A stretch of DNA of 37,280 bases from Candidatus Aenigmatarchaeota archaeon (GTDB lineage Archaea; Aenigmatarchaeota; Aenigmatarchaeia; GW2011-AR5; JACRAC01). The stretch spans positions 142,126-179,405 of the forward strand of contig JAWCMQ010000002.1 of the NCBI GenBank assembly GCA_039091255.1, written 5' to 3'. A program made the translations under genes and the position numbers. Shown here piece by piece: positions 10,285-18,462 of the stretch (its first letter is position 1; every line of letters begins with the position of its first letter). The notes beneath the pieces were generated by a model that worked only from the letters and a program-made list of their open reading frames with translations, was not told the DNA's origin and made no database searches.

Positions 10285-10333
10285 TCTAGCGCAACCTTTT
10301 CCGCCAGCGCTTTTGCGCCAGCAAAAAGGGCTG
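10285..10333 (-). repeat. family-A module copy in 23S domain II region (core 10296-10333)
   Basis: Sense CAGCCCTTTTTGCTGGCGCAAAAGCGCTGGCGGAAAAGGTTGCGCTAGA, between GCCGTAGCGAAA and GCGAGTCCGAAAGGGCG. Confidence 0.8.
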
Positions 10334-10999
10334 TTTCGCTACGGCTTTCGCCTTGCCAGTGGAATGAACTCCCTGCCCCGTTTTTCAAAACGGACGCCGG
10401 TTTACTCTCCGCTTGCGCGGAGCCTTCGCCGGCTAACTGTAGCTGCCTGGTTTCAGGCTCTTTTCAGCGCGTGTTGCCGCTGCTTTTCAGCTTTCCGTCA
10501 CCGTACTAGTGCGCTATCGGACTTGAGGAGTGTTTAGGATTGGAGGTAGATCCCCCCGCATTCCTACTCCCTATCAAGGGAATAGTACTCTGGATACCGC
10601 CAATCTCACTTCTCGGTTTCGCCTACGAGGCTTTCACTCTCTATGGCAGGGCTTTCCAGCCCACTTCGGCTCGCCGAGCGAGAGAGTGCGACGGTCCAAA
10701 CCCCACATCCCACCGCGCTCGTCGCGCGGCGGTTCGGTTTGTCCTATACGGCTTTCAGTCGCCCTTACTTACCGCATCGCGTTTGCTTTCTCTTCCTGCG
10801 CTTACTAAGATGTTTCAATTCTGCGCGTTCGCCTTCACGGCCAGGTTTAACCCCAGCCTCGAATAGAAGGATGTCCCATTAGGCAATCCGTGGTTCAAAG
10901 GCTGCATGCGCCTCGCCACGGCTTATCCCAGCTTGCCAGGACCTTCATCGCCTCTCAAGCCAAGCCATCCTCCAGACAGCATGGGAGCTAGCTTCCTTC

Positions 11000-11021
11000 G
11001 TCCAGACCTATGATGCTTCAT
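11000..11021 (-). repeat. 5' strand of the 23S processing stem
   Basis: gtccagacctatgatgcttcat is the perfect 22-nt complement of 7205-7226. Confidence 0.85.
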
Positions 11022-11226
11022 CGCCGTGCCGACCGGGAAGTCAGCGCGGCTTTACAGCCGCCATGCAAGCAAAGCTTGCGGGCGGTCAGCGATTCGCAGA
11101 GTGCGACCTCCGCCGAACCAAATAGTCAGAGAAACAGCGTGATGAAATCGCCGAAACGATGCCTTCCGCGCTGCACCACACGTGCCTGCCCGCACGAGTG
11201 GGACTCTGACCAGCTCGGTTCTTATC

Positions 11227-11250
11227 ATAACTGCGCGAAGCGCAGCTATT
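11227..11250 (-). repeat. 24-nt spacer hairpin (copy 1), between tRNA-Ala and 23S
   Basis: ataactgcgcgaagcgcagctatt is identical to 11638-11661. It forms a 10-bp helix with a G.U pair in minus sense and an A.C mismatch in plus sense. Confidence 0.75.
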
Positions 11251-11309
11251 AATCCGCGAAGCGGACTACTTCACGCTGCACCATTGTGCAGCGCATCTAT
11301 TTAACTCAA

Positions 11310-11426
11310 TGGACCCGGCGGGATTCGAACCCGCAGCCTCTACCTGCCATGTTTTCCGCCGGCGCTTTTTGCGTCAGCAAAAAGGGCCGTTGCAAGGGTA
11401 GCGATCTTCCATTGATCTACAGGCCC
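11310..11426 (-). tRNA. tRNA-Ala(UGC) with a 44-nt intron at the canonical 37/38 site
   Basis: Sense GGGCCTG TA GATC AATGGAA GATC G CTACC CTTGCA [intron] A GGTAG AGGCT GCGGG TTCGAAT CCCGC CGGGTCC A. It has the G3:U70 alanine identity pair and sits in the usual 16S-23S spacer position. 117 - 44 = 73 nt. No encoded CCA. Confidence 0.85.
11346..11389 (-). repeat. tRNA-Ala intron = family-A module
   Basis: Sense (A)CGGCCCTTTTTGCTGACGCAAAAAGCGCCGGCGGAAAACATGGC. Outer pairs are CGGC/GCCG. Confidence 0.8.
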
Positions 11427-11637
11427 GCATTTGTTCTGCGGGCGCTATTTTATTTAAAGATTCTGAAGATCACTCGGGTTTGGATTTCGAAGGCACGAAC
11501 TTTAGCGCATATCTTGACTGCGCGCAGCGCAGCAAGATGTGCCTGCACACATTTTCGAATTATACTCCATTTCGATTGTTCGCACAATCGTGATCGTGTA
11601 TAATTCGAAAGTTAAGGGTTTCGCTCATCGACCTATG

Positions 11638-11661
11638 ATAACTGCGCGAAGCGCAGCTATT
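11638..11661 (-). repeat. 24-nt spacer hairpin (copy 2), between 16S and tRNA-Ala
   Basis: Identical to 11227-11250. Confidence 0.75.
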
Positions 11662-11927
11662 CGTCCGCCTTTGCGGGCAAAGGTCTAGCATCGCCCCCTC
11701 TTTTGATCAAACTTTTCTTTTAGAAAAGTTTATGGAGGTGATCCAGCCGCACGTTCCCGTACGGCTACCTTGTTACGACTTAGCCCCTCTTGCGGGCATC
11801 TGGTTCGACTTATTCCTGCTCGCCGCATGCTCCGCATGCGGAAGTCTCAGCGTAAGCCTCACCAGAGACCCACTCAATTGGCTTGACGGGCGGTGTGTGC
11901 AAGGAGCAGGGACGTATTCAGCGAGAG

Positions 11928-12053
11928 ATTTCACAGCAGCAAGCGCATCATTGAGCTGCTACAAAGTGCGCGCAAAGCTCAGTGTCAAGCCTCTACATTC
12001 TTCAACGCTCGCGCTCACCTTTGGCCGGGTTAATCATCTGGCACTTGCCGCTA
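11928..12053 (-). other. ~126-nt insertion in the loop of the GCGAGGG/CTCTCGC helix upstream of TGAATACG (16S)
   Basis: The consensus TCATCA loop is expanded by an unrelated structured segment. It is not family A. Confidence 0.55.
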
Positions 12054-12149
12054 TGATGACCCTCGCTTACTAGGGATTCCGGCTTCATGAGGGCGGGTTG
12101 CAGCCCTCAATCCGAACTAGGCGCAGGTTTAAGAGATTGGCTTCCCCTC

Positions 12150-12226
12150 TCCCGGTCCTTTCCTTTCTCACAGACTCGCGGAAAGTTTTCCGCAAGCGCT
12201 TTCTTTTGTGAAAAGAAAGGGCTTAC
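12150..12226 (-). repeat. 16S insertion with family-A core (12185-12225)
   Basis: It splits GACCCCG|...|GAGGGGAAGCCAATCTC. Core sense is TAAGCCCTTTCTTTTCACAAAAGAAAGCGCTTGCGGAAAAC. Confidence 0.75.
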
Positions 12227-12407
12227 GGGGTCGCATCCCATTGTCCTGCGCATTGTAGGCCCCGTGTATCCCAAGCAAATTCGGGCCATACTGACCTGCC
12301 GTCGCCCACTCCTTCCTCTGATTTAGCACCAGCGGTCCTGCTAGAGTGCACGCCGTCCGGAGACAGCGTTAGCAACTAGCAGCGTGGGTCTCGCTCGTTT
12401 CCTGACT

Positions 12408-17164: not shown

Positions 17165-17775
17165 TGCTACATGTATATCAAAAGTGGCTTGGGATAATGG
17201 ACACTGTTTCGGCTGCGGTTCTTCTTGCCATAGGCGTCTGCGTCGCTACATTGGCGAACGTGCTCATAAAGCGTGCCGCGCAGGCGACGATCTTTCGGTG
17301 GTCGAAAAGGATAAGTCACCAAGTTCACACGCGTGTTATTTTTATTGTTAACATCGTTGCGATGGCTGTTAGCGTAGCCATAGCGCTTTTCTTTTTCGCT
17401 GAAGCCATGACAGCGCTGGAACTTAGCACCGCGAGTCGCCTGTTTGAAGCGGCTTCAGCTCAGCTTTCGACGATTGTCATTGCCGGTGTGATACTTGTTA
17501 CAGGAATAATAGCCGCGAAGGTTGTGGCACTGAAAGTGGAACGCCTCGATATCCCAAATCGCCAATTTGCCGCTATGTTGCTGGAGATTTTAATCCTCAC
17601 GGCAACAATCCTCACGGCCGTAGAAAACCTCGGCCTGAAAATAACGGCTTTCATGGAGATGTTCCGTGCAGCGGTGTGGAGCACTGCCTTGGCTGTGGCG
17701 ATAATCTTTGGAATCTCAGTAGGCTTCGTGCTGAAGCCTAAGATTGCGAAATTGCTGAAAGAAGCCAGAGGTTGA
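17164..17775 (+). CDS. membrane protein with repeated conserved-TM-helix segments
   Basis: About 5 hydrophobic helices. The ATG overlaps the GT2 stop by 1 nt. Confidence 0.55.
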   Translation: MLHVYQKWLGIMDTVSAAVLLAIGVCVATLANVLIKRAAQATIFRWSKRISHQVHTRVIFIVNIVAMAVSVAIALFFFAEAMTALELSTASRLFEAASAQLSTIVIAGVILVTGIIAAKVVALKVERLDIPNRQFAAMLLEILILTATILTAVENLGLKITAFMEMFRAAVWSTALAVAIIFGISVGFVLKPKIAKLLKEARG

Positions 17776-17809
17776 TGCTCCCAGGGGGATTTGAACCCCC
17801 GTCCAGGGC

Positions 17810-17823
17810 TTTCCACTCTTTCA
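17810..17823 (-). other. tRNA-Glu intron 3 (14 nt, at or next to 37/38)
   Basis: Sense TGAAAGAGTGGAAA. Its GAAAG can pair with the anticodon-loop CUUUC. Confidence 0.5.
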
Positions 17824-17830
17824 TCGAAAG

Positions 17831-17892
17831 CTTCCGTCCGCACGCCGAAGCGTGCAGCATTCGGCTTTCTCAACTCCTTCGCAGAGCGAAGG
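17831..17892 (-). repeat. tRNA-Glu intron 2 (62 nt, between positions 31 and 32), degenerate family-A-like start
   Basis: Sense CCTTCGCTCTGCGAAGGAGTTGAGAAAGCC...GCACGCTTCGGCGTGC...GGAAG. Confidence 0.5.
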
Positions 17893-17912
17893 GCCCTTAT
17901 CCTTGACCGGGA

Positions 17913-17975
17913 TGTCCAGCCTTGCTCCTCTTTTCCGCCGGCGCATTGGCGTGCGCCACGCGAGCAAAAGGGCTG
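17913..17975 (-). repeat. tRNA-Glu intron 1 (63 nt, D-loop), family A
   Basis: Sense CAGCCCTTTTGCTCGCGTGGCGCACGCCAATGCGCCGGCGGAAAAGAGGAGCAAGGCTGGACA. Confidence 0.7.
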
Positions 17976-18060
17976 CTAGACGATGGGAGCCTGTGCAAGC
18001 CAGGGTGCCAATCACCCAGGCGAGTGGGCCGGGGCAGAATCGAACTGCCAATCTCCTGCT

Positions 18061-18101
18061 TTCCTTTTCGCCAGCACTTTGCGCGAAGCGTAAAGTGCTG
18101 C
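18061..18101 (-). repeat. tRNA-Val anticodon-loop intron, family A variant
   Basis: Sense GCAGCACTTTACGCTTCGCGCAAAGTGCTGGCGAAAAGGAA. The usual C.C mismatch is replaced by an A-U pair. Confidence 0.8.
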
Positions 18102-18121
18102 TGTAAGGCAGGCGTCATGCC

Positions 18122-18235
18122 ATTTTGCGTCGGAAGCTCTAGCTCCTTTCCGCCAGCACTTTCGCTCGAAAGCCGAGGCTTTCGGCGACTCAGGAAAGCT
18201 TCGCTTTTGCTGAGTCGCGGTTAGCAAAAGGGCTG
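18122..18235 (-). repeat. tRNA-Val D-loop intron, long family-A member
   Basis: Sense CAGCCCTTTTGCTAACC...(internal hairpins)...CGAAAGTGCTGGCGGAAAGGAGCTAGAGCTTCCGACGCAAAAT. Confidence 0.7.
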
Positions 18236-18252
18236 CACTAGACCACCGGCCC

Positions 18253-18326
18253 TGCGTTTTCTGCCAGCGCTTTCGTGAGACGAGTTCGCTTAGAGCGAAC
18301 GAGTTCATCCCAGCAAAAGGGCTTAG
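18253..18326 (-). repeat. family-A module filling the tRNA-Ser/tRNA-Val spacer
   Basis: Sense CTAAGCCCTTTTGCTGGGATGAACTCGTTCGCTCTAAGCGAACTCGTCTCACGAAAGCGCTGGCAGAAAACGCA. It starts 3 nt after the Ser discriminator and ends about 5 nt before Val +1. Confidence 0.75.
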
Positions 18327-18462
18327 CGCTGAGGGAGGGATTTGAACCCTCATGGGCTTGCGCCCGCCGCCTAACCGCAGGCTTTCCGCTGGCGCTTTTT
18401 GCTCTGCGCCAGGAAAAGGGCCATAGCAGAGCGGTGCCGTGACCTGGTTTGGCTACCTCAGC
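18327..18462 (-). tRNA. tRNA-Ser(GCU) with a ~51-nt intron at 37/38
   Basis: Sense GCTGAGG TA GCC AAACCAGGTCAC GGC A CCGCT CTGCTA [intron] A GGCGG CGGGCGCAAGCCCAT GAGGG TTCAAAT CCCTC CCTCAGC G. It has a long variable arm and discriminator G. 136 - 51 = 85. Confidence 0.8.
18373..18423 (-). repeat. tRNA-Ser intron, family A
   Basis: Sense TGGCCCTTTTCCTGGCGCAGAGCAAAAAGCGCCAGCGGAAAGCCTGCGGTT. Outer pairs are UGGC/GCCA. Confidence 0.8.

Follow-up and report, generated by a model that had tools for sequence, protein, structure and literature searches.

How are mature ribosomal RNAs (rRNAs) and tRNAs obtained from genes that are broken up by short insertions at about 20 points? This question is raised by a 37,280-nt stretch of a Candidatus Aenigmatarchaeota archaeon genome (GenBank assembly GCA_039091255.1, contig JAWCMQ010000002.1, positions 142,126 to 179,405), hereafter the window, which carries an archaeal rRNA operon on its minus strand together with a cluster of tRNA genes. 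The 23S and 16S rRNA genes match their Rfam models end to end and exceed them by ~690 nt and ~670 nt, respectively (Table 1). Rfam recovered three tRNAs in the window, every one with a 45–55-nt insertion, and ARAGORN found none in the raw window because introns interrupt the tRNA genes; tRNA-Val and tRNA-Glu, each with multiple introns, were recognised by direct reading of the sequence. The insertions are probably archaeal bulge-helix-bulge (BHB) introns, ~20 in total (at least eight in 16S and six in 23S, plus those of the multi-intron tRNAs), which would be removed from the precursor rRNA and tRNA by the splicing endonuclease EndA and the exons rejoined by RtcB. Most of them contain the same cassette, a ~40-nt hairpin followed by GCGGAAA.

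The window 16S rRNA gene was nearest to Aenigmatarchaeota loci. The same genes are present in the metagenome-assembled genome (MAG) GCA_039090635.1, and three further assemblies have a tRNA cluster 100% identical to this one, so the odd gene structures are not an assembly artefact. With the tRNA regions 100% identical, a comparison of these sister assemblies offered no compensatory changes to see.

Exon–intron pairing at the predicted junctions

The insertions were located by Rfam alignment and by alignment to two intron-less haloarchaeal operons (L001 and L002), with cut positions required to restore the reference mature RNA. Eighteen junctions (14 in rRNA and four in tRNA) were set solely in this manner; those of the nested tRNA-Val intron and the D-loop intron of tRNA-Glu were found through the motif and lie outside this rule. 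Where 1–3 nt are identical at both intron ends, the register was chosen to fit a BHB, with at most 2–4 options per intron. Insertion lengths equal the excess over the Rfam models exactly, as in S4 (48 nt against 1 in the model, with an intron of 47 nt) and S5 (89 nt against 9, with an intron of 80 nt), and the products, once spliced, are as long as the Rfam archaeal consensus and as intron-less homologues. The 60-nt spliced junctions of L2, L3, S6, S7, S8 and S9 align without gaps to intron-less relatives, and the L1 product GUAGCGAAAGCGAGUC matches the haloarchaeal reference. Splicing of S8 would give a tetraloop hairpin, CCCC-GUAA-GGGG, equal in length to the CACC-GAAA-GGUG that the relative L058 has there. 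The spliced tRNA-Leu product is accepted by ARAGORN.

A BHB consists of a helix (H1), a 4-bp central helix with a 3-nt bulge on each strand, and a second helix (H2), and is cut after the second bulge nucleotide (PMC5829648). At all 20 junctions, the exon 4-mer pairs in this canonical register with the intron 4-mer just before the intron 3′ end; in one fixed register, the central helix is complete (4/4) in 16 junctions and 3/4 in the remaining four. The conserved mature sequence is regained exactly when both sides are cut behind the second nucleotide of the bulge; EndA would cut there on each strand, and RtcB would rejoin the exons. When 5′ and 3′ partners were exchanged among introns, 2.6% of pairs reached 4/4, with a mean of 1.68 pairs, and none of 20,000 permutations reached 16 perfect helices (maximum 7). 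Sliding the 3′ partner by 1–4 nt (17-junction set) left 0–1 perfect helices compared with 13 in register. The first six positions of H2 were paired at 4.7 on average over the 20 junctions, compared with 2.6 in controls, and at least four of them were paired in 18.

The original prediction, made from the letters of the window, held that in several copies the exon nucleotides upstream of the cassette pair with the segment that follows its conserved tail, and that complementarities no better than in shuffled controls would speak against this. The pairing is present in BHB register at all 20 junctions, and the partner-swap, permutation and slide controls all lie far below the observed values. Its five example junctions all exist, on the minus (RNA-sense) strand. 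The 23S example (L1), the GUAAA/UUUAC example in 16S (S4) and the near-canonical BHB beside the anticodon stem of tRNA-Ser were borne out as listed in Table 1, and the pairing in tRNA-Val was recovered as CUUA/AAGG with three of four pairs. For S7 the proposed helix stands, and the CUG/CAG register given for it was one position off.

Two other explanations of the excess length bear on these junctions. No group I or group II ribozyme core was recovered, as the Rfam scan of the window returned rRNA and tRNA only and the cassette loci gave no Rfam match at E ≤ 1. It is also very improbable that the insertions are unspliced expansion segments kept in the mature rRNA and tRNA. Two parts of the 16S gene do resemble simple helix extensions, namely S3 (13131–13179, minus strand), a 42-nt extension at a hairpin tip, and the lengthened h44 tip (11811–11843, minus strand), which is not a BHB intron and is long also in an Aenigmatarchaeota relative; in other genomes, moreover, the cassette lies inside an apparent mature C/D small RNA (sRNA). 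However, several sites interrupt stretches that are universally conserved and either single-stranded or functional (GGAUUAGAU↓ACCC, GUUA↓AGUC, anticodon loops and T-loops; arrows mark the insertion point), and retention would not explain why 20 sites show an exact BHB geometry that is specific to one register. S3 and the h44 tip themselves are likely expansion segments or decayed introns.

The cassette, its inner hairpin and the bulge-proximal helix

The cassette has the form N-2 N-1 G C (C.C) C UUU..loop..AAA G (C) G C N39 N40, followed by GCGGAAA, and includes a fixed C.C mismatch, which is replaced by A-U in the anticodon intron of tRNA-Val. Fifteen clear copies and one degenerate copy (in the tRNA-Leu intron) were found in the window, and 14 of the 20 introns carry it across 16S, 23S and five tRNAs, that is, related introns occupy non-homologous positions. 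The anatomy originally proposed, an inner hairpin followed by a conserved tail, was upheld by covariation in 133 copies, with 97 distinct trimmed sequences used for the formal score. Over the 133 copies, the dinucleotide preceding GCCC varies in concert with the one following GCGC (CA/UG 69, AA/UU 32, CG/CG 11, AG/CU 6), and both flanking pairs are formed in 120 of them, compared with 61 ± 5 under the null. CG (60) and AU (31) prevail at positions −2/40 and AU (71) and GC (19) at −1/39, and the covariation score of 0.294 compares with 0.110 for shuffled and at most 0.089 for slid alignments. In the stem, G.U pairs number 37 and A.C oppositions 3, an imbalance that suggests a structure formed on the sense strand. 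GCGGAAA was invariant in 136 of 139 hairpin matches.

The tail posed a problem for a strict BHB. The original prediction took the inner hairpin as the sole intron helix, which left GCGGAAAAG and a few further nucleotides unpaired; it held that the ~10 unpaired nucleotides of most copies preclude a strict BHB, and proposed a relaxed or novel endonuclease substrate. Among 11 module-bearing junctions tested, however, nine pair beside both bulges, with H2 formed at 7–11 of 12 positions compared with ~5 expected. In the short introns (L1, S4 and tRNA-Ser) the partner of the cassette's U-rich 5′ strand is the tail; in L1, GCGGAAAAGGUUG pairs with CAGCCCUUUUUGC. In the long introns (S1, S2, S6, S7, S8 and L4), a copy-specific complement of the cassette 5′ strand lies directly before the anti-exon 4-mer; CAGCCCUUCUUG pairs with CAAGAAGUGCUG in S2, GCCCUUUCUUUUC with GAGAAAGGAAAGGAC in S8, and the outer strand UCAAGAAAGCGCU with the cassette 5′ strand in L4. 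The outer helix is built from copy-specific sequence in S1, S2, S6, S8 and L4, and the tail of S7 makes a GAAA-tetraloop hairpin of its own. Constrained folding, which had been suggested as a check, placed the BHB folds 0–3.5 kcal/mol above the minimum free energy (MFE) structure, except for S9 (6.8 kcal/mol); the two folds are identical for L2 and S5 and of equal energy for L6.

Because the nucleotides abutting both bulges pair in nine of the 11 junctions, a novel endonuclease is not required. The rRNA copies can form the canonical helix-BHB-helix (hBHBh′) motif through pairing of the cassette 5′ strand with the tail or with a distal segment, which mostly resolves the tail problem, and only tRNA-Ala and the anticodon intron of tRNA-Val are genuinely relaxed, both at the canonical 37/38 position beside a 5-bp anticodon stem. 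We consider doubtful the earlier version in general form, with the inner hairpin as the sole intron helix, GCGGAAA as a single-stranded spacer or protein site, and cleavage that needs a broad-specificity EndA or a tail-bound cofactor. It would fit those two tRNAs, the strong covariation of the inner hairpin, the invariance of the tail and the fact that 4/4 pairing between tail and upstream exon is limited to 11 of 133 copies; broad-specificity EndA types have been described in DPANN archaea, and their loops are linked to relaxed substrates (PMC5829648). Yet it does not account for pairing beside both bulges well above control, gives no role to the complement of the cassette 5′ strand that stands exactly beside the anti-exon 4-mer in long introns, and leaves aside the match in length of the U-run with the A-run of the tail in 87–89 of 133 copies, compared with 44 expected.

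Since the covarying inner hairpin and H2 both use the cassette 5′ strand, the canonical BHB reading entails two mutually exclusive folds. In the first, the inner hairpin would form, covarying family-wide; in the second, the bulge-proximal H2 would form, its 3′ strand being supplied in short introns by the GCGGAAA tail together with GG(C/U)U(G), and in long ones by the copy-specific distal complement. This second fold, with the outer helix, would be the splicing-competent form. Fitting a copy to its site would require ~6 private nucleotides, the 4-nt anti-exon segment plus 2 nt.

Other pairings of the tail were tried and rejected. Pairing of GCGG-AAA with the exon, as a central-helix strand plus bulge, was found in 11 of 133 copies compared with ~4 expected and does not hold as a general rule; a second hairpin starting in the tail, as in S6, S7, S8 and L4, gave stem lengths over the 133 copies no better than shuffled tails; and extension of the alternative helix through all four nucleotides of GCGG was found in 14 copies compared with 8–13 in shifted registers. 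In ~15 copies (including L021, L114, L053, L025, L004 and L046) the sequence after GCGG is an exact mirror, 8–15 nt long, of the purine-rich 3′ strand of the hairpin, whose variable 5′ strand is ~72% pyrimidine. A purine-motif triplex, whose signature is statistically visible here, was also set aside, since related copies may inflate the statistic and the pairing of U-run with A-run could explain part of it.

Further introns and features of the window

Coordinates of the introns and other cassette copies are given in Table 1. S5 and L3 form a second intron family, both starting with ACGG and having in common the hairpin core UUGCUGCGAUUAUG...(A/G)UCGCAG. L4 and S6 have the same target, UUAGAU↓A, and the same intron 5′ sequence. 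The composite insertion in the D-loop of tRNA-Val contains a well-formed BHB of its own, which suggests an intron within an intron. In the anticodon region of tRNA-Glu(UUC), two copies of (C/U)UUCG allow two readings, either one 78-nt intron at 37/38, giving C33, or introns at 31/32 and 38/39 (the latter of 14 nt), giving the usual CUUUCGA loop. The plus-strand copy at 4886–4949 has a perfect outer helix of 9 bp and an A/T-rich, TATA-like stretch ~40 nt upstream; a host transcript was sought there, and neither an Rfam match nor an open reading frame (ORF) was found. No long ORF was noticed in any window intron, though no search was aimed at homing endonucleases.

A perfect 22-bp helix joins the 5′ and 3′ flanks of the 23S gene (11000–11022 with 7205–7226, minus strand), with no BHB located inside it, and is presumably a processing stem; no comparably clean stem was obvious at the 16S flanks. 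On the flanks of tRNA-Ala and of the rRNA genes lie repeated hairpins of two families (AAUAGCUGCGC-UUCG-GCGCAGUUAU and AAUAGCCGC...GCGGUUAGAAUAG, RNA sense), which may be processing or promoter/terminator signals. Beside tRNA-Leu, between the rRNA operon and the tRNA cluster, lies an ORF for an NYN-domain (PIN-like) nuclease (15594–16097, plus strand) that is conserved in the sister assemblies. At 24923–26095 (plus strand), this archaeal genome encodes a bacterial-type S-adenosylmethionine synthetase, MetK, with three Pfam domains.

Table 1. Host genes, predicted introns, cassette copies and repeated hairpins in the window. Arrows mark cut positions; pairing is given in RNA sense.
Feature	Position	Strand	Junction or pairing	Remarks
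23S rRNA gene (hosts L1–L6)	7321–10996	−		RF02540, 2191 bits, full model; 3676 nt, model 2987 nt
16S rRNA gene (hosts S1, S2, S4–S9)	11733–13884	−		RF01959, 1234 bits, full model; 2152 nt, model 1478 nt
L1, 23S	10286–10334	−	AGCG-AA↓A-CAGCC...GGUUG-CGCU-AG↓A	49 nt, cassette
L2, 23S	10067–10137	−	GGUG-AA↓A...CACC-AA↓A	71 nt, no cassette; H2 12/12
L3, 23S	8957–9083	−	UAAC-AA↓A...GUUA-AG↓A	127 nt, second family
L4, 23S	8269–8349	−	UUAG-AU↓A-AGC...GCU-CUAG-AG↓A	81 nt, cassette
L5, 23S	7742–8147	−	GCAG-CA↓A...CUGA-AU↓G	406 nt; central helix 3/4
L6, 23S	7451–7524	−	AGGC-AU↓A...GCCG-AA↓C	74 nt; central helix 3/4
S1, 16S	13620–13712	−	CUGG-AA↓A-CAGCCCUUU...AAAGGGUUG-CCAG-AA↓C	93 nt, cassette
S2, 16S	13375–13440	−	UCCC-AA↓A-CAGCCCUUCUUG...CAAGAAGUGCUG-GGGG-AA↓U	66 nt, cassette
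S4, 16S	13005–13051	−	GUAA-AA↓C...UUAC-AU↓U	47 nt, cassette
S5, 16S	12899–12978	−	CACC-UG↓A...GGUG-AA↓U	80 nt, second family
S6, 16S	12757–12827	−	UUAG-AU↓A...CUAA-AU↓A	71 nt, cassette; within GGAUUAGAU↓ACCC
S7, 16S	12408–12459	−	CUGU-UA↓C-AGCC...GGCU-GCAG-AU↓A	52 nt, cassette; within GUUA↓AGUC
S8, 16S	12149–12223	−	CCCG-UA↓A...CGGG-AG↓A	75 nt, cassette
S9, 16S	11929–12053	−		125 nt, no cassette; H1 8 bp, H2 12 bp
tRNA-Ser(GCU), 37/38	18373–18423	−	CUGC-UA↓U...GCGG-UU↓A	51 nt, cassette; gene 18327–18462
tRNA-Ala(UGC), 37/38	11346–11390	−		45 nt, cassette; relaxed, central helix 3/4; gene 11310–11426
tRNA-Val(UAC), 37/38	18061–18101	−	CUUA/AAGG	41 nt, cassette; relaxed; gene 18025–18252
tRNA-Val D-loop composite insertion	18117–18235	−		~119 nt, two cassette-like units
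Nested intron in tRNA-Val D-loop insertion	18146–18190	−	AGCU-UUCC-UG↓A...GGAA-AG↓G-AGCU	well formed
tRNA-Leu(GAG), D-loop	16305–16350	−	GGCC-AA↓U...GGCU-AU↓A	46 nt, degenerate cassette; gene 16243–16374
tRNA-Glu(UUC), D-loop	17913–17974	−	UCUA-GC↓A-GCC...GGC-UGGA-CA↓U	62 nt, cassette; gene 17776–17990
Stand-alone cassette	18253–18326	−		fills tRNA-Ser/tRNA-Val spacer; no BHB
Plus-strand cassette	4886–4949	+	GCCCUUUUG/CAAAAGGGC	cassette 4886–4920, second outer strand 4941–4949; near-BHB, 3/4
Repeated hairpins	11223–11257, 11510–11544, 11634–11668; also 5242–5280, 7232–7270, ~4976–5030

Cassette copies in other archaea and the origin of the intron family

A scan with a pattern derived from the window copies, GCCCTTT-N(6-30)-AAAGCGCYKGCGGAAA, matched at least 115 loci in more than 100 other archaeal genomes. 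All matches listed were archaeal, and among them were Aenigmatarchaeota, Woesearchaeota, Micrarchaeota, Altiarchaeota, Nanoarchaeia, Thermococcus, Thermoplasmata and Methanobacteriota. The same pattern found no match in viral contigs, and the consensus cassette sequence no real match in plasmids. Rfam contains no family for the cassette at the gathering threshold or at E ≤ 1, and no description of it was met in the open-access literature, literal sequence strings included, which is no proof of novelty. In other genomes, introns at T-loop position 59/60 have the same layout as those of the window (UUCA-AA↓C-AGCC...GGCU-UGAA-AG↓U), and further BHB cassette introns occur in the D-loop, the anticodon loop, the 16S 515 region and the 23S site of L5. 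In a strict BHB test, 18 of 122 copies elsewhere passed, compared with 5.5 in exon-swapped controls.

Other copies stand 3–5 nt past tRNA 3′ ends, in Thermococcus and DPANN, or at or over ORF stop codons. On an Altiarchaeum contig (L003, 4863–5075), the cassette overlaps an ORF stop (...GGC CCU UUU UGA), and a unit made up of the cassette and the final 25 nt of the ORF occurs three times in tandem, with a period of 71 nt. This was the only regular array seen, and it repeats the whole unit including the ORF 3′ end, unlike a repeat-spacer array of the CRISPR (clustered regularly interspaced short palindromic repeats) type. At L004, L020 and L043, the cassette lies between the D′ and C′ boxes of an apparent C/D sRNA (GUGAYGA..CUGA-[cassette]-UGAUGA..CUGA), a placement given which it may be tolerated in a mature ribonucleoprotein (RNP).

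Several observations weigh against splicing of the window insertions as BHB introns. Many copies elsewhere (tRNA trailers, ORF ends and the C/D sRNA linker) lack any BHB, and the cassette is therefore more than a part of introns. Within the window, neither EndA nor RtcB is encoded, H1 is weak (0–1 contiguous bp) at L2, L5, S1, S6, S7 and S8, the inner hairpin competes with H2, and tRNA-Ala and the anticodon intron of tRNA-Val lack a helix abutting the 5′ bulge. S3 shows no BHB in any register that yields a product of reference length. For the D-loop insertion of tRNA-Val, strict rules gave 0 complete excision paths and relaxed rules 1835, none of them unique.

The sites of L2, L3, S6 and S9 are empty in the Aenigmatarchaeota loci L046 and L070 (that of L2 ungapped in L046), and the S6 site is empty in four homologues. 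The L5 site is occupied by a cassette intron in L046, and in L070 a cassette intron occupies the 16S 515 region, a site without an intron in the window. These empty sites, the different occupied sites in relatives, and the common target and 5′ sequence of L4 and S6 suggest mobility. We infer that the family is a proliferating, "introner-like" lineage of BHB introns common to tRNA and rRNA genes.

Mobility raises the alternative that the cassette is mainly a selfish repeat at the level of DNA or single strands, comparable to REP (repetitive extragenic palindromic) elements or MITEs (miniature inverted-repeat transposable elements), which inserts after ...(C/A)A in transcribed DNA and was kept in essential RNAs only where a BHB happened to form or evolved later. 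We think this unlikely. Many copies per genome in DPANN MAGs, BHB-free contexts that include the tandem triplication, sequences nearly identical across phyla, and the L4/S6 similarity would all agree with it. Against it, no transposase or RAYT-like gene was seen in the window, the copies have neither target-site duplications nor terminal inverted repeats beyond H2, and the scans of viral contigs and plasmids were empty. The orientation is, moreover, always RNA sense, with the excess of G.U over A.C noted above, and an insertion into single-copy rRNA must splice at once, which would be rare for random DNA insertion.

A more far-reaching and tentative possibility, for which we would claim low confidence on the present sequence comparisons, is that the cassette constitutes a pan-archaeal RNA element, bistable and hitherto undescribed, whose own protein or RNP partner reads the C.C hairpin and GCGGAAA, and that it acts as a portable, "ready-to-splice" unit. 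About 10 added nucleotides (GGCU, the 4-nt anti-exon segment and 2 nt) could then turn any transcribed site into a BHB intron. If so, the element would be the archaeal counterpart of eukaryotic introners and a principal cause of the disruption of tRNA and rRNA genes in DPANN archaea. Copies that are not part of introns, in tRNA trailers, 3′ untranslated regions and C/D sRNA loops, would then function in end processing or stability, or be tolerated in that role.

The window introns resemble canonical hBHBh′ introns spliced by EndA and RtcB in their two 3-nt bulges, 4-bp helix, predicted cut site, exact restoration of the product, and location in rRNA and in the anticodon (37/38), D- and T-loops of tRNAs, and in part in their flanking helices, H2 being well paired at 18 junctions and H1 weak at six rRNA sites. 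They differ in their extreme density, in the single cassette found in most of them, and in an H2 that stands against a conserved alternative hairpin. In Thermoproteales, tRNA genes carry BHB introns that are related in sequence yet differ in gene and position; these have been read as recent gains by transposition and co-occur with a broad-specificity EndA (Fujishima et al. 2010, Mol Biol Evol 27:2233, as related in PMC3239211). Set beside that account, the window family likewise shows related introns at non-homologous sites and differences in presence among relatives; unlike the tRNA introns described in it, the family also spans 16S and 23S, in a DPANN host, with a core that occurs across phyla and outside introns. 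The 16S introns of Thermoproteales, which include short (<50 nt) hairpin introns that keep the BHB, occupy a limited set of loci, are unrelated between loci (<20% identity) and have been tied in their mobility to LAGLIDADG homing endonucleases (Jay & Inskeep 2015, PMC4496867). The window introns, by contrast, have the cassette in common between loci. The likeness to REP elements and introners is one of analogy only: a short structured repeat recurs many times, both within genes and at their ends, and, as in introners, arrives carrying its own splicing needs, whereas the splicing chemistry differs, no associated transposase was identified and the sequences are unrelated. By approximate E. coli numbering, S2, S5 and S7 lie near the Thermoproteales 16S intron loci 374, 722 and 1093.

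How archaeal BHB introns originate and spread, and what causes the fragmentation of tRNA genes in DPANN and Thermoproteales, are unsettled questions in the field, and 16S primers and tRNA finders often fail to detect these lineages. Here one sequence family populates 16S, 23S and at least five tRNA genes with few private nucleotides per site, and its core recurs across archaeal phyla. This offers a testable model of intron gain, in which a cassette would bring its own half of the splice signal, and the cassette provides a search handle for disrupted RNA genes in metagenomes. Cultivable Thermococcus, if it has copies in tRNA trailers as the Thermococcus MAGs do, would be a place to probe the role of GCGGAAA.

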